Of a stretch of 42,010 nt of DNA, positions 2,586 through 24,993 are shown piece by piece; within the stretch, counting starts at the first letter, position 1; each line of letters begins with the position of its first letter. The position numbers and the translations under genes are program-made. The DNA is from Spartobacteria bacterium. Its GTDB lineage: Bacteria; Verrucomicrobiota; Verrucomicrobiia; Chthoniobacterales; Chthoniobacteraceae. Location: NCBI GenBank assembly GCA_043766295.1, contig JAYUIF010000332.1, positions 1 through 42,010 of the forward strand, read 5' to 3'. The notes beneath the pieces are model-generated. The model did no database searches, was not told the origin of the DNA, and worked only from the letters and a program-made list of their open reading frames with translations.

Positions 2586-3494
2586 TTACTTGCCGATGGT
2601 GCGAACAGCATCCGCGCACAGACCGATGAAAGTTTCCTCCACCAAGCTCATCCGGCGGCCCTGCCAATGCAACACGCCCCAGCGTCGGCGCAGCTTGCGT
2701 TTGCCGAGCGGCAGCGCGACGAGCGAACCTTCCTCCAACTCCTCGCGCGCAGTCCACGGCGCGAGGATGCTCACGCCGAGTCCCAACTTCACGAGTTCCT
2801 TGATCGCCTCCATATTACCAAGATCGAGCTGGCTAAAGAGCACGATGTCATCGGCGCGGAAGTATTCCTCGATCATCGCCGAGGTGTAGCTCTTGCGCTT
2901 GTAAACGATGTAGTTCTGCCGCGCAATTTCGTCCCGCGCAACACGCCCCGCGAGCGCCCACGGGTGCTGCGGGCTCACGATGAACTGCATCTCGTCCGTG
3001 AACAGCGGGCGAAAATCGAGCGGCTCGCCGCGCTTCGGTTCGAGGTTCACCGCGAGGTCAATCCTGTGCGCGCGCAGGGCATCAATCATCTCCGGCGTAT
3101 CGCCCGGCTCGATGGAGATCGCGCAGTTTGGGAAGCTGTCCTTGAACTCCCGCAGCACGCCCGGCAGCACATGCTGGCACGCCGTCGTGCTCGCGCCGAG
3201 TCGCAACCGGCTCTGCCCCCACTTGCCCAGCCGCCCGAGTTCCGCGCGCGCCTCGGACATCTCGGCGAGAATGCGCGCCGCACGTTCGAGGAGTTGTTCG
3301 CCAGCCTGCGTGAGCACCACTTTTTTGCCCATCTTGTCCAAAATACGACAGCCCACTTCGCGTTCGAGCGCCTTCATCGAGTGGCTCACGGCGGATTGCG
3401 AGAGATGAAGTTCGCGCGCAGCCTGCGTGAAGCTGCCCGTCCGTGCGAGGATGGTGAAAGCCCGGAGTTGTCTGCTGTCCAGTGGTTGCGGCAT
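2586..3494 (-). CDS. LysR-family transcriptional regulator
   Basis: The N-terminal HTH is LRAFTILARTGSFTQAARELHLSQSAVSHSMKALE, followed by a LysR substrate-binding domain. It is divergent from narK and directly upstream of bioD on the same strand. Confidence 0.9.
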   Translation of the reverse strand: MPQPLDSRQLRAFTILARTGSFTQAARELHLSQSAVSHSMKALEREVGCRILDKMGKKVVLTQAGEQLLERAARILAEMSEARAELGRLGKWGQSRLRLGASTTACQHVLPGVLREFKDSFPNCAISIEPGDTPEMIDALRAHRIDLAVNLEPKRGEPLDFRPLFTDEMQFIVSPQHPWALAGRVARDEIARQNYIVYKRKSYTSAMIEEYFRADDIVLFSQLDLGNMEAIKELVKLGLGVSILAPWTAREELEEGSLVALPLGKRKLRRRWGVLHWQGRRMSLVEETFIGLCADAVRTIGK

Positions 3495-3642
3495 ATATGA
3501 AAGCAATTCATCTTTTTGATGAAAAAGTCGCAAGCCATTTATGAGACAACCAGCGCACTATGACCGACTACGACGACGACTTCGGCTACTTGCAAGCCAC
3601 GATCACGTTCTAAAGCAGCGAGTCGCCAACTGCAGCGTATTT

Positions 3643-3938: not shown

Positions 3939-5150
3939 TTGAATCTCACCACACTCAAAAAAGCCGGTCACTTTCCGACGCTCGTCACCGCGTTCCTTTA
4001 CTTCGACTACAGCTTCATGGTCTGGACGCTCCTCGGCGTGCTTGCGAACCAGATCGCCGCGCCGGAGTCGCTCAATCTCAGCGCGCAGCAGCGGTTCTTC
4101 ATGGTGTCGGTGCCGATCCTTTTCGGCGGCCTTTTCCGACTCGCGCTCGGGCTGCTCGTGGATCGCATCGGCGCGAAGCGCACGGGCATCATCGCGCAGC
4201 TCATCGTGATGACCGGTTTGGGTGTGGCGTGGCACTTCGGACTAAAAAATTATGAGGCTACGCTCGCGATGGGCGCGGTGCTCGGCGTCGCAGGTGCAAG
4301 TTTCGCGGTCGCGATGCCGCAAGCCGGGCGCTGGTATCCGCCAAACATGCAGGGCCTCGTGATGGGCCTCGCCGGTGCAGGCAACATCGGCGTGTTGATT
4401 GACTCGCTCCTCGCACCACGTCTGGCGGCGGCCTACGGCTGGCAGTCGGTGTTTGGCTTCGCGCTCATCCCCGCGTTCTTCGTCCTCGCGATCTACATCA
4501 TCTTTTCCAAGGAGCCGCCGAATCCTGCGACGCCGAAAAAACTGGGCGACTACTTCCGCATGTTCAAGGACAAGGACGTTCACTGGTTCTGCTTTTTTTA
4601 CACCGTCACGTTCGGCGGTTTCGTCGGGCTCGCGTATTCGCTCGGCATGTATTTCAAGGATCGCTTCGGCCTCACAAACTCGCAGGCTGGCGACCTCGTG
4701 GCGCTCTGCACAGCCATCGGCGCGCTCGGTCGGCCCATCGGCGGCGCGATCTCGGATCGCATCGGCGGCATCCGCTCGCTGCACGTCTATTACACCGTCG
4801 CGTGCGTCGCGCTCGTGCTCGGCGGGCTCGTGGAAAATCTCTGGCTGAATGTCGCGATGTTCTTCATCGCTTGCGGTGCGTTCGGAATGGGTAACGGCTC
4901 CGTCTTTCAACTCCTCCCCCAGCGTTTCGGCAAGGAACTCGGACTGATGACCGGCCTCGTCGGCTGCGGCGGCGGCTGCGGCGGATTCCTGCTCGCAAAC
5001 ATGATGGGCCTGAGCAAACAACACTTCGGCACCTACCTCACCGGCCTGCTCGTTTTCGCGAGCCTCTGCATCTTCGCGCTCATCGGCCTGAAGCTCGTGA
5101 AGACCCGCTGGCGCACGACGTGGGGCGCAGTGGCGGCGGCGCGGATTTGA
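3939..5150 (+). CDS. narK: MFS nitrate/nitrite transporter (NarK/NrtP/NasA type)
   Basis: KKAGHFPTLVTAFLYFDYSFMVWTLLG is a NarK-type N-terminus, GGLFRLALGLLVDRIGAKR is the MFS loop motif, and about 12 hydrophobic helices are present. TTG start at 3939. Confidence 0.85.
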   Translation: MNLTTLKKAGHFPTLVTAFLYFDYSFMVWTLLGVLANQIAAPESLNLSAQQRFFMVSVPILFGGLFRLALGLLVDRIGAKRTGIIAQLIVMTGLGVAWHFGLKNYEATLAMGAVLGVAGASFAVAMPQAGRWYPPNMQGLVMGLAGAGNIGVLIDSLLAPRLAAAYGWQSVFGFALIPAFFVLAIYIIFSKEPPNPATPKKLGDYFRMFKDKDVHWFCFFYTVTFGGFVGLAYSLGMYFKDRFGLTNSQAGDLVALCTAIGALGRPIGGAISDRIGGIRSLHVYYTVACVALVLGGLVENLWLNVAMFFIACGAFGMGNGSVFQLLPQRFGKELGLMTGLVGCGGGCGGFLLANMMGLSKQHFGTYLTGLLVFASLCIFALIGLKLVKTRWRTTWGAVAAARI

Positions 5151-6808
5151 TTCCTGATATTTTGAAAGTGAACCTCACCAGCTACGGCCTGCCAAAGTGC
5201 GACGGCGCGGAATCCGACGACGCCTTCGCCGTGAAGACGTGGGATGAAACCGTGATCGCCGTGCTCGCCGACGGTGCAGGTGCAGCGCGTGATGCGAGGG
5301 AAGCGGCCACACGGATCGTGCAGTCGCTGATGAGCAACTACGCCGTGCGCCCCGCGAGCTGGACACCGCAGCGTGCGCTCGCGGAATTTACGAAAATCAT
5401 CAACCACACGCTGCACCACGAGTCGCTCGTGCGTCACTCCGCGCCGGAGATGATCTCCACGCTCTCGGTCGCAGTGATCGAGGGCAACCGGCTCTTCGGC
5501 CTCAATGTCGGCGACTCGCGCGTGTATCTCTCCCGCGGCGGCCAGCTCTCGCAGCTATCGCACGATCACGTGCTCAACGACCGCACTTTCTCCCACGTCC
5601 TCCAGCGCGCCATCGGCCTCGCGCCGGAGGTCGAGCCGCATTGCTTCGAGACCGAACTGCGCAACGGCGACATCGCCCTCCTCTGCTCCGACGGTGTCTC
5701 GAATGTGCTGAGCGATGATGTCCTTTCGCAGCAACTCTCCCATCACACCGCCGCGCGCGCCATCGTGCAGCACGCGCGCGAACTCGCGACCGAGGAGACG
5801 CTCGACGACGCAAGTGCGATCGTGATCAACATCGCCGAGACTGGTAAGCTGCGCGCCGTGAGCCAGCTTCCACTTTTAATCCCAGACACACTCCAAAAGG
5901 GCGATGTCATTGATGGCTACGAACTCGTGCGCCCATTCCAGCACAGCGACCGCGTCTGGCTCGCGACGAAGGACGACCAAAAGTGGACGCTGAAATTCGC
6001 CCCGCTGGAAGCGCGCGACGACGAGGAGATTCTCGCGCGTTTCATCAAGGAAGCCTGGAACGCCCAGCGCGCCGCCGAAGCAGCGCCAGAGCCGTTCGTC
6101 GCGGCCTTCACCCCCGAGCGTGCGACCGCGCGCTACTACGTGCAGGAGTTCGTCGAGGCCCCGAGCCTCAAGGCCGTTTTGAAAGCGCGCGCACTCGGCC
6201 CGGATGAAGCCGTCGCGCTCGGAAAGTTCCTGTGCGCCGCGAGCGAACGGCTCATCGGCCTCGACCTCGTGCATGGCGATTTGAAGCCCGAGAACGTGCT
6301 CGTCGTCTCCGACTACGACCGCCTGCGTTTCAAGCTGATCGATCTCGGCAGTGCGGCGGAAGTCTTCAGCGTGACCTCGCGCGCCGGCACCGCGAGCTAC
6401 CTCGCGCCCGAGCGTTTCCAAAACGCGCCGAACTCCGAGCGCACCGAGATTTTCGCCATCGGCGTAACGCTCTACGAGGCGCTCACGCGCGCGTTTCCCT
6501 TCGGCGAAATCGAACGCTTCCAGACGCCCGCCTTTCACGCGCCCAAGCGCCCGAGCGCGCGAAACGCCAACATCCCGCCGTGGCTGGACCACGTCATCCT
6601 CCGCGCCATCAGCATCGAGCCCGAGCGGCGCTACCAGCATTTCAGCGAGATGGCGTTCGACCTCGCGCACCCCGAGCGCGTCGAGCCGTTCTTCCAAAAG
6701 GACGCGCCGCTGCTCGAACGCGACCCGCTCACTTTCTACCGCACCGCCTTCTGGCTGCTCCTCGCCGCGTGTCTCTATCTGCTCTTCCGCCTCGCCGCTT
6801 CGCACTGA
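5120..6808 (+). CDS. Bifunctional PP2C-type phosphatase / Ser-Thr protein kinase with a C-terminal TM helix
   Basis: The N-terminal half has PPM motifs (AVLADGAGAARDA, GLNVGDSRVY, LLCSDGVSNVL, DDASAIV). The C-terminal half has kinase motifs (WTLKFAP, LVHGDLKPENVLV, IDLGSA, GTASYLAPER). The tail is FWLLLAACLYLLFRLA. The true start may be TTG 5162 or GTG 5168, just after the narK stop. Confidence 0.85.
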   Translation: MGRSGGGADLIPDILKVNLTSYGLPKCDGAESDDAFAVKTWDETVIAVLADGAGAARDAREAATRIVQSLMSNYAVRPASWTPQRALAEFTKIINHTLHHESLVRHSAPEMISTLSVAVIEGNRLFGLNVGDSRVYLSRGGQLSQLSHDHVLNDRTFSHVLQRAIGLAPEVEPHCFETELRNGDIALLCSDGVSNVLSDDVLSQQLSHHTAARAIVQHARELATEETLDDASAIVINIAETGKLRAVSQLPLLIPDTLQKGDVIDGYELVRPFQHSDRVWLATKDDQKWTLKFAPLEARDDEEILARFIKEAWNAQRAAEAAPEPFVAAFTPERATARYYVQEFVEAPSLKAVLKARALGPDEAVALGKFLCAASERLIGLDLVHGDLKPENVLVVSDYDRLRFKLIDLGSAAEVFSVTSRAGTASYLAPERFQNAPNSERTEIFAIGVTLYEALTRAFPFGEIERFQTPAFHAPKRPSARNANIPPWLDHVILRAISIEPERRYQHFSEMAFDLAHPERVEPFFQKDAPLLERDPLTFYRTAFWLLLAACLYLLFRLAASH

Positions 6809-8577
6809 TGACCCGCATTCCATTCATTCCCGAAAACGCCCCATTCACCGCCGAGCAACGCGCGTGGCTGAATGGATTTCTCGCCGGAGTTTTCAGCGAC
6901 GCGGGCGCATCCGCCGCGATGGCTGCGCCCATTTCGGCAGAGCCGAAAGCGCCGCTGCTCGTTCTCTACGGCAGCCAGACCGGCACCGCCGAAGGGCTGG
7001 CGAAGAAGACTGCCAAAGCCGCGGAGGGCCGCGGCTTCGCGCCGCGTGTGGTGAGTTTGGAAAAATACGAGAGCGTCGAGTGGGCGAAGGAAAGTAACGT
7101 GCTCGTGATCACCAGCACCTACGGCGACGGCGAGCCGCCCGATCCCGCGCAGGCATTTTGGGGCTGGCTGAAAAGCGAGACTGCGCCGCGTTTTGAACAC
7201 CTCCGCTACAGCGTGCTCGCGCTAGGCGACACGAACTACGCGGAGTTTTGCGCCTTCGGAAAAAACTGCGACGAACGTCTCGCCGCGCTCGGTGCGAAGC
7301 GGGTTTGCGAGCGCAAGGACTGTGACCTCGACTACGAAACGCCCGCCGCGGAATGGACGAACGGCGTCTTCACCGCGCTCGGCGAAGGACTCGCGCAAAG
7401 CCACGAAGACGCAAAGCCGGAGACAGCCGCGCAGACCAGTCACCAGTCACCAGTCACCAGTCACGACCGCAAAAACCCGTTCCCTTCGCCGCTGCTTCGC
7501 AACGTCCAGCTCAACCGCGCTGGCAGCGCGAAGGACGTGCGGCATTTCGAGCTGGGCCTCGTGGGCAGCGGACTCATCTACGAAGTCGGCGACGCGCTCG
7601 GCGTCTTCCCGAGCAACTGCCCGCGCTACGTCGCCGACTTGCTCGCCGCGCTCGGCTGCGATGGCGAGGAAGCCGTGAGCGCCGCTGGCAGCGAGATGCC
7701 GCTGCGCCTCGCGCTCACGCAGCATTTCGACGTGACGAAGCCCTCAAACGAACTGCTCGCCGCCGCCGCCGCGCGCTCGCCCGGCAGCCAACTCGCCGCG
7801 CTCCTCGCGCCCGAGCGCAAAGTCGAACTTAAACAATGGCTGCATGGCCGCGAGGTCATTGACGTGCTGCTCGGCTGCGCGTCGCCGCTCGCGCCCGCGG
7901 AGTTGGTGAAGCTACTGAAAAAACTCGCGCCGCGACTTTACAGCATCTCCTCCTCGCTCAAGGCACACGCGGACGAAGTGCATCTCACCGTCAGCGCCGT
8001 GCGCTACGAAACGCACGGACGCACGCGCGGCGGAGTAGCGTCCACATTCCTCGCCGACCGCGTGGGCGACACGGGCCGCGCGCCGGTTTTCGTGCAGCCG
8101 TCGCACGGCTTCAAACCGCCGTCGGGCGCAGACACACCGATGATCATGATCGGCCCCGGCACCGGCATCGCGCCGTTCCGCGCCTTCCTCGAAGAACGCC
8201 TCGCCATCGGCGCAAAGGGTCGCAACTGGCTGTTCTTCGGCGACCAAAAATGTGCGACGGATTTCCTCTACGAAGAACAGCTCACCGGCTGGCAAAAGGA
8301 CGGCCACCTCACGCGCCTCGATCTCGCCTTCAGTCGCGATCAGGCGGAGAAAATCTACGTGCAAACCCGGATGCTCGAAGCCGCGAGCGAGCTGTGGGTG
8401 TGGATCGAAAACGGAGCCCACTTTTACGTCTGCGGCGACGCCTCGCGCATGGCGAAAGATGTGGACGCCGCGCTGCACACCATCATCGAAAAGGCTGGCG
8501 GAAAATCTGCGGACGACGCGAAGGACTACGTGACCAAGCTGAAATCCGACAAGCGGTATCAACGCGATGTCTATTGA
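6808..8577 (+). CDS. CysJ-like NADPH flavoprotein (flavodoxin + FAD/NADPH ferredoxin-reductase domains) with a short N-terminal extension
   Basis: LVLYGSQTGTAEGLAKK and ITSTYGDGEPPD mark the FMN domain. RLYSISSS, MIGPGTGIAPFRAF and YVCGDASRMAKDV mark the FAD/NADPH domain, and the protein ends ...RYQRDVY. The ATG at 6808 overlaps the kinase stop (TGATG). The 6232-6807 ORF extension is rejected. Confidence 0.9.
   Translation: MTRIPFIPENAPFTAEQRAWLNGFLAGVFSDAGASAAMAAPISAEPKAPLLVLYGSQTGTAEGLAKKTAKAAEGRGFAPRVVSLEKYESVEWAKESNVLVITSTYGDGEPPDPAQAFWGWLKSETAPRFEHLRYSVLALGDTNYAEFCAFGKNCDERLAALGAKRVCERKDCDLDYETPAAEWTNGVFTALGEGLAQSHEDAKPETAAQTSHQSPVTSHDRKNPFPSPLLRNVQLNRAGSAKDVRHFELGLVGSGLIYEVGDALGVFPSNCPRYVADLLAALGCDGEEAVSAAGSEMPLRLALTQHFDVTKPSNELLAAAAARSPGSQLAALLAPERKVELKQWLHGREVIDVLLGCASPLAPAELVKLLKKLAPRLYSISSSLKAHADEVHLTVSAVRYETHGRTRGGVASTFLADRVGDTGRAPVFVQPSHGFKPPSGADTPMIMIGPGTGIAPFRAFLEERLAIGAKGRNWLFFGDQKCATDFLYEEQLTGWQKDGHLTRLDLAFSRDQAEKIYVQTRMLEAASELWVWIENGAHFYVCGDASRMAKDVDAALHTIIEKAGGKSADDAKDYVTKLKSDKRYQRDVY
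7435..7464 (+). repeat. Perfect tandem heptanucleotide repeat (ACCAGTC)x4 plus a partial unit, inside the flavoprotein interdomain linker
   Basis: Read directly: accagtc accagtc accagtc accagtc ac. It encodes ...TSHQSPVTSH... Confidence 0.95.
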
Positions 8578-10273
8578 TATGAGCGGCGTCACACCACTCG
8601 CGGGCGCGAATTTCAGCGCGGAGCAGAAGGAATATCTCAGCGGACTTTTCGCGGGCGTCGCGGTGCGCGGGGAGCGGTTCGCCGATCCGGAGGAGAAACC
8701 CGCGCTGGATGATCTCATCTTCGAGGAGCGCGTGAAGCGCGAGATGCACCCGCTGGATGCGTATGGGCAAATCCTTGAGAACGCTGTGGGGAACAAGGCT
8801 CCCGACAAGGAGGAGACGTTTCGTTTCAAATGGAACGGCCTCTTTTTTCTCACGCCAATCAAGGACTCATTCATGGCTCGGCTGCGGATTCCGGGTGGCG
8901 TGCTCTCGTCGTTTCAGCTCCGCGAAATCGCGCGTGTCGCGGCGGAGTTGACGACGGGCTACGTGCAAATCACCACGCGGGCGAATTTGCAAATCCGGCT
9001 CATCGCGCCGAAGGACGCGCCGGAAGTGCTGCGGCGTATCCAGTCGGTCGGCCTGCATACGCGCGGCGCGGGTGCGGACAACATCCGCAACCTCACAGCG
9101 AATCCGACGGCGGGCATCGATCCGGTCGAGCTGATTGACGTGATGCCGTTCGTCCGCGAGCTGGGGCAGCTCATCATCAACGACCGCGCGTTCTACGATC
9201 TGCCGCGCAAATTCAACATCGCCTACGATGGCGGCGGGCTGATCGGCTCGGTCGAGGACACGAACGACATCGGCGTGAAAGCCGTGCGCGTCGGCGAGGA
9301 AATCCTATTCCGCATCGCGCTCGGTGGCGCGACGGGACACAAGGCTTTCGCGCGCGACATCGGCGTGATCGTGCCGCCCGCGCAGATCAACAAAGTCGTC
9401 TGCGCGCTCGTGCGCGTCTTCATCGCGAAGGGAAATCGCGGCGACCGAAAGAAAGCGCGACTCAAGCATCTGCTGGAGAAAATGCCGGTCGCGGAGTTCC
9501 TCGCGGAGACGGAGAAAGTGCTCGGCTTCACGCTCGCGCGCGCGCCGTTCGATGCGGCGGAGATGCTGTATCCGAGCCAGTCGCTGCCGCACACACACAT
9601 CGGCGACTACCCGCAAAAGCAGCGCGGGCTGAACTACGTCGGCGTCGCCATTCCCGTCGGCCACCTCACGCCGAAGCAAATGCTGCGGCTCGCGGAGCTG
9701 GCGGAACTTTACGGCAGCGGCGAAGTGCGGCTCACGGTCTGGCAGAATCTCATCATCCCGAATGTGAGCGACGCTTTCGCGCCGACGCTGAAAAAGGCGC
9801 TGGAGAAAATGGAGCTGAGCACGCGGCAGTCGAACGTGAAGAGCGGCATCATTGCTTGCACGGGGAGCAGCTACTGCAAATTCGCGCAGTCGAATACGAA
9901 GGGCCATGCGCTCGCGCTCGGCGACTATTTGGAGAAGAAGCTGGAGCTGGATCAGCCGGTGAACATCCACCTCACCGGCTGCCCAAATTCCTGCGCACAG
10001 CACTACATGGGCGACATCGGGCTGCTCGGCGCGAAGGTCAAAATCGGCGGCGAGAGCATGGACGGCTACCACGTTTTCGTGGGCGGCGGTTTCGGAAAAT
10101 ACCAGGCGGTCGGGCGACAGGTTTTCAACGGCGTGGCGGCGGGAGATTTACCCGTGACCATCGAGCGGATGCTGCGCGCGTATCTGCAGCATCGCGTGGG
10201 AAAGGAGACGTTCCTCGCGTTTTCCACGCGGCATGAGGTGGGAAAATTGCAGGAGCTTTTCAGTAATGAGTAA
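8567..10273 (+). CDS. nirA: Sirohaem/[4Fe-4S] nitrite (or sulfite) reductase haemoprotein, NirA type
   Basis: FMARLRIPGG, ITTRANLQIR, GADNIRN, CTGSSYCKFA and TGCPNSCAQHYMGDIGLLG are NIR_SIR motifs. The context (narK, nasA) favours nitrite. The alternative start ATG 8579 would remove the 11-nt overlap with the upstream gene. Confidence 0.85.
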   Translation: MSIDMSGVTPLAGANFSAEQKEYLSGLFAGVAVRGERFADPEEKPALDDLIFEERVKREMHPLDAYGQILENAVGNKAPDKEETFRFKWNGLFFLTPIKDSFMARLRIPGGVLSSFQLREIARVAAELTTGYVQITTRANLQIRLIAPKDAPEVLRRIQSVGLHTRGAGADNIRNLTANPTAGIDPVELIDVMPFVRELGQLIINDRAFYDLPRKFNIAYDGGGLIGSVEDTNDIGVKAVRVGEEILFRIALGGATGHKAFARDIGVIVPPAQINKVVCALVRVFIAKGNRGDRKKARLKHLLEKMPVAEFLAETEKVLGFTLARAPFDAAEMLYPSQSLPHTHIGDYPQKQRGLNYVGVAIPVGHLTPKQMLRLAELAELYGSGEVRLTVWQNLIIPNVSDAFAPTLKKALEKMELSTRQSNVKSGIIACTGSSYCKFAQSNTKGHALALGDYLEKKLELDQPVNIHLTGCPNSCAQHYMGDIGLLGAKVKIGGESMDGYHVFVGGGFGKYQAVGRQVFNGVAAGDLPVTIERMLRAYLQHRVGKETFLAFSTRHEVGKLQELFSNE

Positions 10274-11345
10274 GCTCAACCGCACCGCGCTTCTCGCCGG
10301 CACCATTCTCACGCTCGCCACGGTCGCAGCCATCGCGGTCGGCTCGACTTGGATGCGGCATTTCGATCCGGCGCTCACGGGCTACGCGGTTGGCGCGCTC
10401 ATGGCGGCATTTGCGGTCGGGTATCGCTTCGTGGTGTGGGCGCAGAGGCCGCCGTCGCGGATGTATTTCAAACGCGGGTTCGAGTTGTTCTTTCGTCGCG
10501 CGGGCACAGCGCCGCGTGCGGTGAAAAAAGCGGCGAGCGTCGTCCCGATGCCGCACGGCGCGGGGACGCTCGGCTACGCGCTGGCGCGAAATTTCGTCGC
10601 GCAGGAATTCATCCGGCGGCGCGGCGGCTTCCGCTGGGTCATGCACCTGTGCCTCTCGGGCGGATGCACGCTCGCGTTTGCGATCACGTTTCCGCTCGTG
10701 TTTGGGTGGATTCACTTCGAGTCGTTCGCGGACAACGCGGAGATGTATCACGTCGCGGCGCTCGGCGTGAATGTGGACAGCTTCAGCGTTCACAGCTTCA
10801 AGGCGTTTCTGATGTTCAATCTGCTGAACATCTCCGCCGTCCTCGTGCTCATCGGCCTCGCGATGGCGGCGTGGCGGCGCTTCACGGATGCGGGCGAACG
10901 CGCGACGCAGAGTTTCTCCGAGGACATCGTGCCGCTGCTGCTCATCTTCGCGGTCACAGCGACGGGTCTCGCGCTTACGGTGAGCTACAAATTTCTCACC
11001 GGGCGCGGGCACGGGCTGTGGGCAATTGTCCACATGGTCAGCGTCGTCGCGCTGCTGCTCTACATCCCGTTTGGAAAACTTTTTCATATGTTTCAGCGAA
11101 CGTGTTCGCTGTGCGTGAGCCGCTATAAAAAAGTCGGCGCTGCCGGCGAGCGCGCGCACTGCCGGCGCTGCGGCGAGGACTTCGCGAGCGCGATGCACGT
11201 CGCGGATTTGAAGACGGTGCTCGGCGAACTCGGCTTCGATTACCGCTTCGATGGCGCGCAGGGCGAAGTGCATTACCAAGACATCTGCCCCGCGTGCCGC
11301 CGCGCGCTGCTCGCGCTCAACCAAGGCCGCTCGATAGGCCGCTGA
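10266..11345 (+). CDS. Six-TM membrane protein with NarI/DsrM-like dihaem cytochrome b features and a Cys-rich cytoplasmic tail
   Basis: Six hydrophobic helices are present. There are His pairs in helix 3 (VMHL...WIHF) and helix 6 (IVHM...[11 protein letters not shown], His 18 residues apart). The tail carries CSLC, CRRC and CPAC. The ATG at 10266 overlaps the nirA end by 8 nt. Confidence 0.55.
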
Positions 11346-11350
11346 TTTTC

Positions 11351-13558
11351 ATGGCAACGCTCACTTTACCCGAGGAAAAATACATCGAACTCTACGGCCC
11401 GACGCTCGCGCATACGCCCGCGGGCGGGTGGAATAACGGCGAGCCAGACAAGCTCGTGAAGACGCATTGCTGCTTCTGCGGCGTTCAGTGCGGCATCCAG
11501 CTCAAGGTGAAGGACAACAAGGTCATCGGCTTCGAGCCGTGGGAGGAATTCCCCGTGAACCAAGGCAAGCTGTGTCCGAAGGGCGTGAAGCGATACATGC
11601 AAAATGATCACCCGGATCGCTTGCTCACGCCGCTCATGCGGAGCGCGGACGGCTTCCGCGCGGCGGGCTGGATCGAGGCGCTGCGCACGACGGCGAACGC
11701 GATCAAAAACATCCAGGCGAAGCACGGAAAAGATGCGTTTGCATTTCTCGGCGGAGCCTCGATGACGAACGAGAAGGCGTATCTCAACGGCAAGTTCGCG
11801 CGCATCGCGCTCGGCACGGCGAACATTGATTACAACGGGCGGCTTTGCATGGTCGCCGCGGGCTCGGCGAACCGCATGGCGTTCGGCGTGGACCGCGCGG
11901 CGAATCCGTGGAGCGACATCCCGCTGGCGAAAGTGATCATCCTCGCGGGGACGAATCTCGCGGAGTGCTTCCCGATCCTCACCGACTACGTGTGGCGCGC
12001 GCGCGATGCGGGCGCGAAAATCATCGTGATCGATCCACGCATCACGCCCATTGGTCGCACGGCGGATTTGTTTTTGCCTGTGCGTCCGGGCCGCGACAGC
12101 GCGCTGGCGAACGGCATCCTGCATGTGATGATCGAGCGCGGGTGGATTGATGAGAAGTTCATCGCCGAGCACACGACGGACTTCGACAAAGTGCGCGAGT
12201 TGGTGAAGCGATACACGCCGGAGTTGACGGAAAAAATCACGGGCGTTCCGGCGAAGAGCATCCTCGCCGTGGCCGAGATGTGGGGCACGGCGGAGACTTC
12301 GATGCTGCTGCACGCGCGCGGCATCGAGCATCACACGAAGGGCACAGAGAACGTGCTGACTTACATCAACCTCGTGCTCGCCAGCGGTCGCATCGGCAAG
12401 CCGGGCTGCGGCTACGGCACGATCACAGGACAAGGGAATGGACAAGGTGGACGCGAGCATGGACAGCGGTGCAACCAGCTCCCCGGCGGGCGCGACATTT
12501 CGAAGCCGGAGCACCGCGAGTTCATCGCGGACTTCTGGGGAATCCCCGAGCCGGAGTTGCCGAAGGTGGGGCTGACGGCGTGCGAGATCATTGATGCAAT
12601 CGAGCGCGGGGAAATCAAAGGGCTGCTCTCGATCAGCTTTAATCCGCTCGTCTCGATCCCCGACAGCGAGCGCACGCGCAAGGCGCTGGAGAAGCTGGAG
12701 TTTTTTGGCTGCATAGATTTTTTCCTCAGTGAGACGGCGCGCTACGCGGATGTCGTGCTCGCGGGCTCACTTCAGGAGGAAGACGAGGGCACGGTGACGA
12801 CCGGCGAAGGCCGCTGCGTGCGGCTGCGCAACTCGGTCTCGCCGCCGGAGAACGCGCGCGTGGACTGGCAGATCATCTGCGAACTCGCCGAGCTGCTGGG
12901 GAAGGAGAAGTTCTTCAAATACAAAAACGCCGGGGAGATTTTCACCGAACTCACGGCGGCGTCGAAGGGTGGGCCGATTGATTACAGCGGGATGACCTAC
13001 AAAAAGATCGAGGACAACATGGGCATCTTCTGGCCGTGTCCCGCGCCCGATCATCCCGGCACGCCGCGCTTGTTCGAGGGCGGGAAGTTTCATCACCCGG
13101 ATGGTCGCGCAAAATTTCACGTTTACGAATACCGCCCGCCCGCCGAGGACGTGGATGCGGAGTTCCCGATCTTTTTCACGACGGGCCGCGTGGTCTCGCA
13201 ATACCTCAGCGGCACGCAGACGCGGCGCATCGGTGGCTTGGTGGATCAATATCCCGAGCCGCTGTGCGAGATGCACCCGCTGCTCGCGGCGAAACTCGGC
13301 ATCGCGGATCGCGACATTGTGAAGGTGACGACGCGGCGCGGAGAAATCACCGTGCCCGCGCAAGTCGTGAAGACGATCCGACCCGACACGGTCTTCATCC
13401 CGTATCACTGGCCGGGCAAGAAGGCCGCGAACCAAGTCACGCTGCGCGCGCTCGATCCGATCTCGAAGATCCCCGAGTTCAAAGTCTGCGCGTGCCGCGT
13501 GGAGAAAGTCGCCGATGCGCCGGTGATGTCGCAGCCGATCGCTTTGAAAACCAAATGA
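11351..13558 (+). CDS. nasA: Assimilatory-type molybdopterin nitrate reductase catalytic subunit (NasA/NarB class), no signal peptide
   Basis: [10 protein letters not shown] is the N-terminal 4Fe-4S motif and [11 protein letters not shown] gives the Cys Mo-ligand context. [15 protein letters not shown] and the C-terminal FIPYHWP...[10 protein letters not shown] are also present. There is no twin-arginine leader. Confidence 0.85.
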
Positions 13559-14256
13559 ACGGCGTGCTCAACGGCAACGAATTTTTCCTCGATCCCTCGC
13601 GCTGCATCGGCTGCCAGGCTTGCGTGCAGGCGTGCGGCGAATGTGGGACGCACCGTGGACAGCCGATGATCCATCTCGAATACGTGCATCGCTCGACCGG
13701 CGTGCAGACCGCGCCGGTCGTTTGTATGCACTGCGAGGATCCGACTTGCGCGCGCGTCTGCCCGGCGGATGCGATCAAGCAGGACGACCAAGGCATCGTG
13801 CACAGCGCCGCGAAGCCGCGCTGCGTGGCGTGCTCGAATTGCGTGATCGCGTGCCCGTTCGGCGTGCCGAAAATGAAGGCCGAGATCGAGATGATGATGA
13901 AGTGCGACATGTGCTACGACCGCACGAGCGTGGGGAAAAAGCCGATGTGCGCGACCGTATGCCCGAGCGGCGCGCTCTACTACGGCCCGCGCGAAACCAT
14001 CGAGAAGCTGCGGCGCGAAAAGCCGGTGAATGAATTCCAGTTCGGACGCCAGACGGTGAAGACGAAGGTGAACATGATGACTTCGCCGGAGTTGAAGGCT
14101 CTGCCGTTCGAGGTGCTCGATTTTCTGCCGTGGGAGGGAAAGGACTTTGATCCGTTTGAACTTTCCCGCGCCGGAGCGCCGGATGCGGCGAGCGCAGCCG
14201 TCTGGGACGAGGCCGTCGCGAGCCCGCGCTGCGGCGGAAACTGCACCTGCCACTAA
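13555..14256 (+). CDS. Four-cluster 4Fe-4S ferredoxin-type electron-transfer subunit (DmsB/NarH/PsrB class)
   Basis: Four Cys groups are present: [37 protein letters not shown] and CDMCYDR...CATVCP. ATGA overlap with nasA. The extra C-terminal motif is CGGNCTCH. Confidence 0.85.
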
Positions 14257-14265
14257 TCACACACG

Positions 14266-14745
14266 ATGCCCGACAACCCGCACTGGAATGCCAACTTCCC
14301 CGTCCGCCAATCCGACGAACACGACGTGACGCGCCGACAATTTTGCAAAGTCGCGTGCGGCTCCGCGCTCGCCGTGGGCGCGGGATTTCTCGCGAAGGAC
14401 AAACTTTTTCCCGCGCCCGTGACGAAGGAGCCGATGCTCGTCGCGCGCGTCGTGGACGTGCCGGTGGGCGGCACCAAGCTCTTTAATTATCCCACCGAGC
14501 ATCATCCCGCGATCCTCGTGCGGCTGGGCGAAAATGAATTCGCGGCATTCAGCCAAAGCTGCACGCACCTGCAATGCCCCGTGCATTACCGGCACGAGCA
14601 GCGCCAATTTTACTGCCCATGCCACGAGGGATTTTTCAGCGCGCAAGATGGCCGCGTGCTCGCCGGCCCGCCGCCGCGCGCGCTGCCGCGCTTTCCAATT
14701 TCAATCCGTGACGGCGAAATCTGGATCGATCCCAAATCCGCTTAG
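14266..14745 (+). CDS. Rieske [2Fe-2S] protein with a twin-arginine/N-terminal anchor motif
   Basis: CTHLQCPVH and CPCHEGFF are the Rieske boxes. The N-terminus, DVTRRQFCKVACGSALAVGAGFLA, looks like a Tat signal or signal anchor. Confidence 0.85.
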   Translation: MPDNPHWNANFPVRQSDEHDVTRRQFCKVACGSALAVGAGFLAKDKLFPAPVTKEPMLVARVVDVPVGGTKLFNYPTEHHPAILVRLGENEFAAFSQSCTHLQCPVHYRHEQRQFYCPCHEGFFSAQDGRVLAGPPPRALPRFPISIRDGEIWIDPKSA

Positions 14746-20201: not shown

Positions 20202-22385
20202 CTAGTGATTAAACAAAAACTCGCGGCTGCTGAGGATGGCCCAGAGGGTGTCTTCCATCACGAGGCGGGGGTCGTCTTTGGCGTCGGCGAGGATGCTTTG
20301 CACGGCTTGGATTTCGGCGGGCGTCGGGACGCGGGCGAGGGTGGCGAGGGTGGCGTCCGTGAGCCATTGTTCGGCGGGCTTTTTGGCGGCGAGCACTTTG
20401 CTGATGAAGCCCTCGGTGGCGTGGAGCTTGGCGTTGAGGGTGTCGCCGTTGGCGAGGTGGAGTGCTTGCGCGACGTTCGATTCGGTGGTGCGCTCGCACT
20501 CGCACGTTAGTTCGCGCGCGGGGCGGCCAAATGTTTTTGTGAAGTAACTGTTCGTGTTTGCATCGGGGAGTTGGAGTGCGCGCCAGCCGAGGGGGAAGGG
20601 CGTCTGCTTGTCGTCCTCCACGGTGACGTCGCGCGTGGTGAAAGGCGTGGGCACTTCGGTGACTTGCGCGATGGCGTCGTGCAAAACTTCGGCCATCAAT
20701 CGGCGCGGATAGTAGTGCGAATAAAAGCGGGTGTCGTCTTTGTTGCCCGGCAGTGGTGCGCTGGTGCGCTGGTAGGTTTCGCTTTGCAAAATCTCGCGCA
20801 TGAGCGCGCGGAGATCGTAGTGGTGCTCGCGCAGCCATGTCGCGGCGGCGGTGAAGAGTTGCTCGTTGCTCGCGGGGTTTGTCTCGCGGATGTCGTCCAC
20901 GGCTTCGACGAGTCCGACGCCGAAGAAATTTGCCCACACGCGGTTCGTGATGGCGCGGGCGAAGTAGGGATTCTCCGGGGCCGTGAGCCATTTCACCAAC
21001 GCCTCGCGGCGGTCGCCGCCGGCATCGAGCGCGATGGGCTGGCCGCCGAGCGGACGCGGCGGTTGCGGCTTGCCGGTGAGCGGCTGCACGAGGTCGCCAT
21101 CATCGGCGGCGAAGACGATGCGCTCGTCGCCCCTACCGTTTTTCATCCGCACGCGGGCGAACAAATTCGCGTAGCCGAAGTAGTCGTTGTTCGTCCACTT
21201 CTCCATCGGGTGATTGTGGCACTTCGCGCAGACGGTGGAGATGCCGAGGAAAGTGACGGAGGTTTTTTCCGACACGTCGCGAGGGTCGGGCGTGATGACG
21301 AAATAATTCGCCGCGCCGTTATCGAGCGAGCTGCCCTGCGCGGTGAGAATCTTCGTGGCGAAATCATCCCAGTGCGTGTTCGACGCCACCTGATCGCGCA
21401 CCCATTTGTAATAGGCCCACATCGTCTCCAGCGGCAGCTTGCGCTTCGTGACGAGCAGCAGGTCGCTCCATTTATAAGTCCAGTAATCCACAAACTCCGG
21501 CCTCACGAGCAGCGCCTCGATGAGCCGGTCGCGCTTGTCCGCAGTTTTGTCCGAGAGGAAATCGCGCACCTCCTGCGCAGTCGGCAGCACGCCGATGGTA
21601 TCGAGAAATGCGCGACGCACGAACTCGCCGTCGGAGCTTCGTGGCGAAGGCGGCAGATTCAGCTCCCGCAATTTCGCCAGCACTTGTTCATCAATCCAAT
21701 TCCTGCGCGACGCCTGCGCCCATGTGTTCTCGGCGATTTGATTTTCAAACGGAACGCTCGCTGTGCCGAACGCGACCTTTTGCAAATACCAGACCGTCAC
21801 CGCGCTCTCGCCGTGGCCGACTACCGTGGCGAGCCCCACGTCATCCACGTTGAGCACGGTTTGATTTGTCGCTGTGTATTTCGCCCAGCGCGTCACGTCC
21901 GCGCTGTGTCCGTCGGAAAAATATGCGCTCACGGTGAACTGCTTTTTTTCACCCGGCGCGAGACGCACCTGCGCGGGCTGCACCTCGACACGCACGATGC
22001 GCGCATCCTCCGCGCGCGGCCCCGGCGCGCCGTCGGCGATCCAATCCACGAGCGTGCGCCACTCGGGCGAGTTCACTTTGAAACGCTCGCCGCCCTTGTG
22101 CGGCACGGCGCTCGTGGCCTTCAGCAAAATGAGCGACTTCGCAGGCTCGCTCGGATTGACGCGACGCCCGAACGCCCCGCGTGTGAGCGTGAGAAAATCG
22201 CCTTCATCATCGTAGCCGCGCAGTGACAATTTAAATCCCCCCTGCCCCGCCGCCGCGCCGTGACACGCGCCGGTCGAGCAACCGGACTTCATCAAAATCG
22301 GCTGCACCTGATTACGAAAAGTCACCGTCTCCGCGCTGGCGGAAACGACAAGAACGAGAAGGTAGGCGAACGCTCGCATCGGCAC
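20202..22385 (-). CDS. DUF1549/DUF1553 (PSCyt/PSD-type) protein with a central Ig-like domain
   Basis: It has a signal peptide. FRNQVQPILMKSGCSTGACHGAAAGQGGFKLSLRGYD is the DUF1549 head and CAKCHNHPMEKWTNNDYF is the conserved centre. The DUF1553-like tail ends ...SSREFLFNH. Confidence 0.85.
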   Translation of the reverse strand: MPMRAFAYLLVLVVSASAETVTFRNQVQPILMKSGCSTGACHGAAAGQGGFKLSLRGYDDEGDFLTLTRGAFGRRVNPSEPAKSLILLKATSAVPHKGGERFKVNSPEWRTLVDWIADGAPGPRAEDARIVRVEVQPAQVRLAPGEKKQFTVSAYFSDGHSADVTRWAKYTATNQTVLNVDDVGLATVVGHGESAVTVWYLQKVAFGTASVPFENQIAENTWAQASRRNWIDEQVLAKLRELNLPPSPRSSDGEFVRRAFLDTIGVLPTAQEVRDFLSDKTADKRDRLIEALLVRPEFVDYWTYKWSDLLLVTKRKLPLETMWAYYKWVRDQVASNTHWDDFATKILTAQGSSLDNGAANYFVITPDPRDVSEKTSVTFLGISTVCAKCHNHPMEKWTNNDYFGYANLFARVRMKNGRGDERIVFAADDGDLVQPLTGKPQPPRPLGGQPIALDAGGDRREALVKWLTAPENPYFARAITNRVWANFFGVGLVEAVDDIRETNPASNEQLFTAAATWLREHHYDLRALMREILQSETYQRTSAPLPGNKDDTRFYSHYYPRRLMAEVLHDAIAQVTEVPTPFTTRDVTVEDDKQTPFPLGWRALQLPDANTNSYFTKTFGRPARELTCECERTTESNVAQALHLANGDTLNAKLHATEGFISKVLAAKKPAEQWLTDATLATLARVPTPAEIQAVQSILADAKDDPRLVMEDTLWAILSSREFLFNH

Positions 22386-24918: not shown

Positions 24919-24993
24919 CGTCCCCGGCGTGACTCGAACACGCGACCGGCCGCTTAGAAGGCGGCTGCTCTATTCCAACTGAGCTACGAGGAC
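24919..24993 (-). tRNA. tRNA-Arg (anticodon UCU)
   Basis: Cloverleaf folded by hand: acceptor GTCCTCG/CGGGGAC, D stem GCTC/GAGC, anticodon stem GCCGC/GCGGC with loop CTTCTAA, and T stem GCGTG/CACGC with loop TTCGAGT. CCA is not encoded. Confidence 0.9.

Follow-up and report, generated by a model that had tools for sequence, protein, structure and literature searches.

A four-gene cassette encoding a NasC-class nitrate reductase, a four-cluster iron-sulfur protein, a NarI-like membrane protein and a Tat-type Rieske protein: a possible quinol-fed assimilatory nitrate reductase in Verrucomicrobia and other phyla

The subject of this analysis, which is computational only, is a 42,010-nt stretch of DNA from a Spartobacteria bacterium, a soil Verrucomicrobium (contig JAYUIF010000332.1; the window, by which the whole stretch is meant) and, within it, a cassette of four genes that closes an operon for nitrate assimilation. 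Eight plus-strand genes lie head to tail between positions 3939 and 14745: narK, a PP2C/kinase gene, a cysJ-like gene and nirA, then the four-gene cassette. The window has a G+C content of about 61%, and the nearest relatives of its proteins are found in Chthoniobacter and other Verrucomicrobia. The genes of the cassette are as follows.

10266-11345, plus strand: NarI-like membrane protein; its ATG overlaps the end of nirA by 8 nt
11351-13558, plus strand: NasA-like gene, the catalytic subunit of a NasC/NarB-class nitrate reductase with a molybdenum-bis(pyranopterin guanine dinucleotide) (Mo-bisPGD) cofactor (Molybdop_Fe4S4, Molybdopterin and Molydop_binding domains); a 5-nt gap (TTTTC) follows the membrane protein gene
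13555-14256, plus strand: iron-sulfur (FeS) electron-transfer subunit with four [4Fe-4S] clusters, DmsB/FdnH/HycB class (PF13247, 75 bits); ATGA overlap with the NasA-like gene
14266-14745, plus strand: Rieske [2Fe-2S] protein with a twin-arginine translocation (Tat) motif and one membrane helix (PF00355, 44.6 bits); a 9-nt gap follows the FeS gene

A first-pass annotation of the same DNA had described four contiguous genes, joined through a gap of 5 nt, an overlap (ATGA) and a gap of 9 nt, encoding a six-helix membrane protein, a leaderless NasA/NarB-class enzyme, a four-cluster subunit and a Rieske protein, within an assimilation operon that also holds narK, NirA and a CysJ-like protein. The gene boundaries are confirmed, and domain models agree both with the classes of the three redox proteins and with the operon setting.

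The cassette is widespread and its organization is conserved. When one genome per species was scanned with a sequence pattern, 47 related loci were obtained (given L numbers below). On 31 of them the contig is long enough to show gene order, and in every one of the 31 the membrane protein gene is followed by those for NasA, FeS and Rieske, in this sequence. The loci cover Chthoniobacterales, Opitutales, Limisphaerales, Verrucomicrobiales, a cultured Pelagicoccus and an actinobacterial (Ilumatobacteraceae) metagenome-assembled genome (MAG; 39% identity), the taxonomic labels of several MAGs being doubtful. More distant members, fetched by a search of 50%-identity representatives, show the same order at 31-39% identity (L045, L049, L052, L053/54 and L055/56). 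Its recurrence in all related loci of sufficient length shows that the arrangement is not the product of chance; the synteny with nasA on which the first-pass annotation had made its interpretation depend is strict across phyla.

The neighbors of the cassette, on the other hand, vary (nirA/cysJ, nirBD, narK, nrtABCD). In L055 it stands behind nrtABCD, translationally coupled to this importer, and next to nirBD and a LysR gene; in L057 it follows a GAF kinase and a GerE regulator; and in L049, where the membrane protein is fused to NarK, the contig looks Gram-positive and also holds gatCAB and a germination gene. Cassettes lacking cysJ are found both in L055, where nirBD is present, and in L007, L049 and L053, where neither is found. 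Among the loci examined the cassette has no constant flavoprotein or ferredoxin gene beside it, in keeping with a quinol as electron donor, and no cytochrome c gene is linked to it. The Rieske gene is never lost from intact cassettes, though it is short in L057 and L058.

One apparent exception to synteny, L047, was rejected as such: this Limisphaerales MAG holds a remnant open reading frame (ORF; L047:6615-7130) in which the C-terminal part of the membrane protein, with helix 6 and the four-Cys domain, is fused to a NirA-like C-terminus, evidence of operon decay by deletion. In one lineage a gene for a ParA/CbiA/Mrp-like ATPase lies between the FeS and Rieske genes (L054:5497-6228); it may encode a factor for FeS-cluster delivery.

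The catalytic subunit is best matched, of all models, by that for NasC (NF047855; residues 32-718, 826 bits, short of the equivalog cutoff of 1100 bits). The competing models for Fdh-alpha and NapA reach 619 and 278 bits, and the arsenite_ox_L model scores 137 bits, below its cutoff of 359. The N-terminus holds the four-Cys [4Fe-4S] motif CCFCGVQC...C (CxxCxxxC...C), and the closest solved relatives by sequence are FdhF-type formate dehydrogenases (FDH). At the Mo-ligand position 'GRLCMVAAG' aligns with 'ARLCHAPTV' of FdhF, that is, the ligand Cys is followed by Met (a pair starting at residue 164) and not by the His typical of formate dehydrogenases; Cys-Met also occurs at this position in Nap and Nas enzymes. 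The window protein has neither a signal peptide nor a twin-arginine leader, and signal peptides are likewise missing from NasA and FeS proteins wherever their N-termini could be read (window, L049, L045). Enzymes of the NasC/NarB class normally use soluble donors.

The FeS subunit comprises 233 amino acids (aa), with 16 Cys in four groups (residues 17-27, 57-69, 90-100 and 117-136); its best solved relatives are FdnH and HycB3, and its sequence contains no signal peptide and no membrane helix. Residues 226-233 (window 14230-14253) read CGGNCTCH, a C-x3-C-x-C-H tail that is kept in close Verrucomicrobia relatives only (e.g. CSGNCTCH, CGSHCKCHE) and could form an extra metal site.

The membrane protein, 83% identical to its homologue in C. 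flavus Ellin428, belongs to a family of more than 1,200 clusters at 90% identity and 970 at 50%. A confident AlphaFold2 model (mean predicted local distance difference test, pLDDT, 93) contains six long transmembrane helices, as the first reading of the sequence had it, together with a helical insert (residues 60-120) assigned to the cytoplasmic side, a three-strand sheet (149-174) assigned to the outer face, and a C-terminal beta-beta-alpha ribbon with four Cys. Several comparisons bear on its affiliation. Precomputed PF02665 matches are present in many close homologues; NCBIfam models give weak partial matches (QmoC at 1e-10, TcuB, TmcC, HmcE, NarI and DsrM); and a profile of 36 diverse homologues, compared with the PDB, finds E. 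coli NarI at E = 2.4e-4. The profile alignment sets H256 and H274 (PFGKLFH) on H187 and H205 of NarI (PFSRLIH), residue for residue, and for this reason the 18-residue spacing, which had been put forward as that of NarI, is verified. Foldseek returns NarI at probability 1.00 (TM-score 0.45) and, at probability 0.99, mycobacterial EtfD through its NarI-like domain. Its best E-values fall on G-protein-coupled receptors and rhodopsins, which are generic helical bundles, and the search was judged by its probability and TM columns, beside the independent sequence alignment.

Only three His are near-invariant across diverse members of the family, namely H127, H256 and H274; H256 is invariant and H274 is conserved at 90-97%. 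Of the two His pairs named by the first-pass annotation the H256/H274 pair is thus kept family-wide, together with a single further His, H127, which stands at the cytoplasmic start of the helix equivalent to NarI helix 2. A fourth His is found at position 150 in about half of the diverse members and at position 185 in the other half, and at neither in 10 of 51. Likewise, the three CxxC pairs reported for the tail reduce to two that are family-wide (C299/C302 and C341/C344), the third (CSLC, C280/C283) being restricted to close relatives. Taken together, the comparisons with NarI and the near-invariant His support placing the protein in the NarI superfamily, as a presumed cytochrome b, and speak against an unrelated transporter with non-conserved His; we infer that it binds haem b. 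Characterised NarI-family proteins are quinone-reactive, and their FeS partners dock on the cytoplasmic face.

Two further Cys, C129 and C134, stand with C280 and C283 near the cytoplasmic ends of helices 3 and 6 (window 10650-10667 and 11103-11114). Of 169 aligned homologues 88 have the full set of four; in the 50%-identity set (n = 51) only the window protein does.

Lys and Arg number 13 in the 60-120 loop, 14 in the C-terminal tail and none in the 146-177 loop, and in other lineages NarK is cleanly fused to the membrane protein, on its N-terminal side (P0125, P0165 at L049:10001-12490, and P0169). On the strength of these charge counts and fusions both termini are predicted to lie inside, with the insert and the tail in the cytoplasm and the sheet outside. 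The real fusions are probably also the source of the JGI label carried by many unfused homologues, 'NNP family nitrate/nitrite transporter-like MFS' (MFS, major facilitator superfamily). Sequences in which the membrane protein seems to be joined to the Mo enzyme (P0200, P0231, P0267, P0235 and P0215) were set aside as assembly artefacts, being frameshifted and containing low-complexity stretches.

The N-terminal region of the Rieske protein contains the stretch FPVRQSDEHDVTRRQFCKVACGSALAVGAGFLA, in which a near-consensus twin-arginine motif, TRRQFCK, is followed by the hydrophobic helix VACGSALAVGAGFLA. The cluster boxes CTHLQC and CPCH (CxHxxC/CxCH) include two extra Cys, which form a disulfide in the Rieske proteins of bc1, b6f and AioB. 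A twin-arginine motif ([STNPV]RRx[FLV]) occurs in 37 of 38 orthologues (35 by filter and two by eye), among them actinobacterial, Gram-positive-like and proteobacterium-like ones. Of the 38, 37 have box I and 34 have box II, those without a box either running into a contig end (L033, L034) or stopping before box II (L057/L058). The best matches are Rieske proteins of b6f/bc complexes and AioB, and the arsenite-oxidase small-subunit model is matched too; PF13806 (NirD/NasG) reaches 18.3 bits, below its cutoff of 27. By these features the protein is of the Tat-inserted bc1/b6f/AioB type and not a soluble NasG/NirD-like Rieske; NasG is one of the soluble donors that the first-pass annotation named for assimilatory enzymes. 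The Tat motif, the helix and the disulfide Cys place the cluster domain, by prediction, on the outer face of the membrane, opposite NasA and FeS, which carry no export signal.

In L057 (11736-12119) and L058 (8103-8486) the Rieske gene, in a complete genome, stops just before box II ('...KCP*'), which reflects either a frameshift, a pseudogene or a sequencing error. Directly 3' of the Rieske gene, and translationally coupled to it, non-verrucomicrobial cassettes encode a small two-helix membrane protein (67-82 aa, faint DUF6755 match; L045:~8186-8387, L049:15931-16149, L054:6814-7017, L059:1823-2056 and L062:9501-9749), of which the window has no counterpart.

A distant subfamily of the membrane protein (P0186, P0219) has an AOR-family gene upstream and a Tat-type Rieske gene directly downstream. 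Metagenomes scanned with the two-sequence alignment of this subfamily yielded 42 loci (L060-L101), from sediment and groundwater, plus a weak match (L102) without these genes. On all contigs of sufficient length the genes run AOR (646 aa), FeS, FeS, AOR-like (566 aa), membrane protein, Rieske, small two-helix protein; both FeS proteins are four-cluster (example L062:2944-9749). Neither the AOR nor the FeS proteins have signal peptides, and the membrane protein keeps the equivalents of H127, H256 and H274 as well as the four Cys. To our knowledge all characterised AORs are cytoplasmic. Since the same trio stands behind genes for AOR-family tungsten enzymes, FeS subunit, NarI-like protein and Tat-type Rieske look like a reusable module that links cytoplasmic pterin enzymes to the membrane.

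The interpretation that we favor, and to which we give somewhat better than an even chance, is that the four genes encode one membrane-bound, cytoplasm-facing assimilatory nitrate reductase that is fed by quinol – probably menaquinol – and not by NAD(P)H or ferredoxin. A cytoplasm-facing enzyme, quinol-coupled or membrane-tethered, had already been proposed by the first-pass annotation, and the kinship to NarI, the synteny and the lack of a conserved soluble-donor gene among the loci support it in part; what it missed is the predicted place of the Rieske domain on the outer face. With the Rieske protein opposite NasA and FeS, the complex would not simply be NarGHI rebuilt with NasA.

The enzyme might work as follows. 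The NarI-like protein would span the membrane with both ends in the cytoplasm, carrying haem b: a cytoplasm-side haem on H127 and H274, and an outer haem probably on H256 and a variable partner. The Tat-inserted Rieske head, together with the outer part of the NarI-like protein, would form a quinol-oxidizing site on the outer face; protons would be released outside, and electrons would cross the membrane on the haem or haems. In the routing that we prefer, the electron taken by the Rieske cluster would be passed to the outer haem, so that both electrons reach nitrate. Their entry point would be the four-cluster FeS subunit, which would dock on the insert and the four-Cys domain at the cytoplasmic side, and they would move on to the [4Fe-4S] cluster of the NasC-type subunit and to Mo, where nitrate imported by NarK would be reduced; the nitrite would go to NirA, itself fed by the CysJ-like NADPH flavoprotein. 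Overall this would amount to a NarGHI-like redox loop around a Nas-type enzyme.

Several observations weigh against such a quinol-fed, cytoplasm-facing enzyme. With regard to the membrane protein, PF02665 scores 19.9 bits on the window sequence, below its cutoff of 22.9; the Foldseek E-values are weak (0.03-0.1), with the TM-score on NarI at 0.45; and the His pattern is incomplete, for NarI helix 2 has two His about ten residues apart (presumably H56 and H66) and there is no His at +10 from H127, leaving H66 without an equivalent in the alignment. Moreover, the second ligand of the outer haem is not fixed in position, and it is absent from the AOR-linked subfamily. As for the Rieske protein, the charges flanking its helix are symmetric (+1/+1), so that its orientation is deduced from the Tat motif and from homology; on the outer face it would have no obvious acceptor if NasA is inside; and we know of no NarI-type complex that needs an outer-face Rieske. 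Finally, the nearest functional precedent for a Tat Rieske protein paired with a leaderless Mo subunit is arsenite oxidase, which is wholly exported.

A doubtful extension of the favored mechanism would make the complex a third kind of Rieske/cytochrome b complex, in which a Qo-like site splits the two electrons of quinol. One electron would leave via the Rieske cluster to a high-potential periplasmic acceptor, and the second, thereby energized, would move inward via haem b into the low-potential four-cluster chain, which would feed cytoplasmic pterin enzymes that otherwise depend on donors of ferredoxin level: NasC-type here and AOR-type in the sister cassette. The centers of cyanobacterial NarB are probably of unusually low potential, and such a device would then have a purpose.

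The arsenite oxidase precedent leads to the alternative that survives best, although we hold it to be unlikely. In it NasA, FeS and Rieske form a complex in the cytoplasm that leaves as one on the Tat signal of the Rieske protein, whose helix then tethers it, and nitrate is reduced outside: the NarI-like cytochrome and the Rieske protein would oxidize quinol, electrons would run from Rieske through FeS to NasA, possibly with a Q-cycle-like return of the second electron via the haems, and nitrite would be imported by NarK or NrtABCD for NirA. Haloarchaeal pNar operons, in which a Rieske protein (NarB) and a cytochrome b (NarC) accompany an outward-facing NarGH, speak for it. The Rieske signal peptide is conserved and is the only one in the cassette, the protein scores on the arsenite-oxidase small-subunit model and on AioB structures, and NarK and Nrt systems can carry nitrite. 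In addition, a published phylogeny places AioA close to or within NasC/NasA (PMC7331816). However, export would leave the conserved insert, the four-Cys domain and the cytoplasm-side haem ligands without a partner, against the precedent of cytoplasmic FeS partners in the NarI family. In the AOR cassette, moreover, both AORs and both FeS proteins would have to be exported, for which that family offers no known case. Domain-model scans of the operon proteins reveal no NarJ-, NapD- or TorD-type export chaperone, and transfer from a Rieske center to an all-Cys [4Fe-4S] cluster would be steeply uphill.

If, instead, NasA and FeS received electrons from a soluble donor (ferredoxin, flavodoxin or the CysJ-like protein), then the membrane protein might do no more than anchor the enzyme beside NarK for channelling, the Rieske protein being separate or regulatory. 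The NarK-membrane protein fusions suggest just such an association of transporter and enzyme, the operon includes a CysJ-like flavoprotein, and soluble donors are the rule for NasC/NarB enzymes. Yet the His that align with the haem ligands of NarI are near-invariant; cassettes exist without cysJ (L055, L007, L049, L053); and intact ones always retain a Rieske gene, truncated though it is in L057/L058. We regard this alternative as improbable.

Still less credence is given to a quinone-free wire, in which the Rieske protein trades electrons with a cytochrome c or cupredoxin of the periplasm, the haems linking it, in one direction or the other, to the cytoplasmic enzyme. An outer-face Rieske without an operon-encoded partner, and an outer haem and quinol site that are atypical, would suit this arrangement; but the quinone reactivity of characterised NarI-family proteins speaks against it, as does the lack of a linked cytochrome c gene in the loci examined, and electrons flowing inward from carriers at about +250 mV, against the membrane potential, would have almost no driving force.

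Least probable of all, and very much so, is that the Mo enzyme reduces or oxidizes something other than nitrate (formate, for example, or another oxyanion): the FdhF-type best solved relatives, the sub-equivalog NasC score (826 against 1100 bits) and the lack of nitrogen genes near some distant cassettes (L053) point that way, but Met in place of the His of aligned FdhF follows the Mo-ligand Cys, the NasC model outscores Fdh-alpha, and narK and nirA lie in the operon, with nrtABCD and nirBD at other loci.

A quinol-fed, cytoplasm-facing enzyme of this kind would resemble NarGHI of E. coli, a respiratory nitrate reductase. In both, a Mo-bisPGD nitrate reductase that faces the cytoplasm is combined with a four-cluster FeS subunit and a membrane cytochrome b of NarI fold; they have in common the 18-residue His pair of NarI helix 5 with its PF(S/G)(R/K)L(I/F)H motif and, by prediction, a redox loop in which quinol is oxidized outside and nitrate reduced inside. 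The components differ, nevertheless. The catalytic subunit is of the NasC/NarB class, with a Cys ligand and about 735 aa, whereas NarG has an Asp ligand and about 1250 aa; the FeS subunit (233 aa) is DmsB/HycB-like, whereas NarH has 510 aa and a 3Fe-4S cluster; the membrane subunit adds an N-terminal helix, the cytoplasmic insert, the outer-face sheet and the four-Cys tail, and does without the H66 equivalent; and the cassette has an obligatory Tat-type Rieske, no NarJ gene and a place in an assimilation operon. It would thus work like NarGHI without being a member of that group: its catalytic and FeS subunits are of other families, one haem-ligand position has no counterpart and a Rieske protein is added.

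With the soluble assimilatory enzymes – NasBC of B. subtilis, NasC-NasG-NasB of Paracoccus and cyanobacterial NarB – the cassette has in common the catalytic family, the absence of a signal peptide, and an operon with transporter and nitrite reductase; in Paracoccus a Rieske-fold protein takes part as well. Those enzymes, however, are soluble, are fed by NADH flavoproteins or ferredoxin, and have no four-cluster or membrane subunit, and NasG/NirD, unlike the cassette Rieske, are small and cytoplasmic and lack the Tat signal, the membrane helix and the disulfide Cys. On genomic evidence, then, the catalytic subunit departs from the soluble-donor property of its own family.

Arsenite oxidase AioAB (and iodate reductase IdrAB) likewise pair a leaderless Mo-bisPGD subunit of the Nas/Nap/Aio clade with a Tat-signal Rieske protein that has the disulfide Cys. 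AioA, though, has a 3Fe-4S cluster and no protein ligand to Mo, where the cassette enzyme has four Cys for a [4Fe-4S] cluster and a Cys ligand; and Aio, an oxidase donating to periplasmic carriers, has no four-cluster subunit and no membrane cytochrome. A Tat-inserted, N-terminally anchored Rieske protein beside a quinol-reactive transmembrane haem-b protein is also the plan of bc1 and b6f. In contrast to these, and to NarB/NarC of haloarchaeal pNar, the cytochrome of the cassette has the NarI fold and there is no cytochrome c1 or f; unlike in bc1/b6f, electrons on the low-potential side would finish not at a Qi site but in a chain of FeS clusters and a Mo enzyme in the cytoplasm.

A menaquinone-linked cytoplasmic formate dehydrogenase, ForCE of B. 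subtilis (PMC8808070), offers a further parallel, being a cytoplasmic Mo enzyme of the FdhF/Nas clade tied to the menaquinone pool by a non-canonical partner. ForCE has no NarI-like, FeS or Rieske subunit, and its electron flow is opposite. ForE is a small DUF1641 protein.

Known modules therefore appear here in an undescribed and widespread arrangement. The first-pass annotation did not recognize the combination as a described system, and a full-text literature search found it undescribed beyond one aside: Heylen and Keltjens (2012) remarked on the linkage, in Bacillus bataviensis, of nasC with genes for an iron-sulfur protein and a Rieske protein, 'suggesting an alternative' system of assimilation. 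Papers on Mycobacterium narB, by Degli Esposti, by Palmer on Tat and on the phylogeny of dimethyl sulfoxide reductases do not cover the four-gene system. According to Wells et al. (2020, PMC7331816), the canonical four-cluster and membrane-anchor subunits do not accompany any member of the Nas/Nap/Aio/FDH clade, a generalization that the cassette contradicts. The cassette would also answer what reduces NasC where NasB or ferredoxin partners are missing, a question raised for Sulfobacillus and Bacillus, and it exposes the systematic misannotation of the membrane subunit as a nitrate transporter.

If the favored interpretation is correct, a membrane-bound, quinol-fed assimilatory enzyme would be a fourth wiring of bacterial nitrate reductases, beside Nar, Nap and soluble Nas, common in soil and water Verrucomicrobia and present in other phyla, and a redox loop would allow energy to be conserved during nitrate assimilation. 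A Tat-type Rieske protein paired with a cytochrome of NarI fold, a combination reused by AOR-type tungsten enzymes, would be new to bioenergetics and may bear on the origin of the Rieske partner of arsenite oxidase.

The remaining genes of the operon, and the gene that diverges from it, are these.

2586-3533, minus strand: divergent LysR-type regulator (Pfam HTH_1 and LysR_substrate); context only, outside the enzyme
3939-5150, plus strand: NarK-family nitrate/nitrite MFS transporter, the first gene of the operon (MFS_1; TIGR00886 at 254 bits, below its 311.7-bit cutoff)
5120-6808, plus strand: fusion of a PP2C phosphatase and a Ser-Thr kinase, with a C-terminal membrane helix (PP2C_2 and Pkinase)
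6847-8577, plus strand: CysJ-like NADPH flavoprotein with flavodoxin, FAD and NAD domains (TIGR01931, 647 bits; PRK06214, 468 bits, above cutoff)
8567-10273, plus strand: NirA-family sirohaem nitrite reductase (NF007126, 'NirA family protein', 710 bits, above the cutoff of 523)

The LysR gene is a candidate for the regulator of the operon; a LysR gene also adjoins the related nrt-cassette locus, L055. The PP2C/kinase gene lies next to narK in all 17 of the related loci where both are present, a hint that phosphorylation regulates the uptake or assimilation of nitrate. The CysJ-like flavoprotein is the likely electron donor of NirA, and an N-terminal motif, F(T/S)AEQ..(W/Y)L(N/S)G(F/L)(L/F)AG, is common to the two proteins (window 6847-6950 and 8600-8680); it may be an element of mutual docking or dimerization. 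Scans for Rfam families, promoters and terminators gave nothing relevant to the operon, and long antisense ORFs, such as that on the minus strand at 10260-11324, were treated as artefacts of the high G+C content.

Elsewhere in the window, and unrelated to the cassette, are a tRNA gene (24919-24993, minus strand) and a gene for a DUF1549/DUF1553 (PSCyt2/PSD1) protein (20202-22385, minus strand), a family that we take to be typical of Planctomycetes and Verrucomicrobia.

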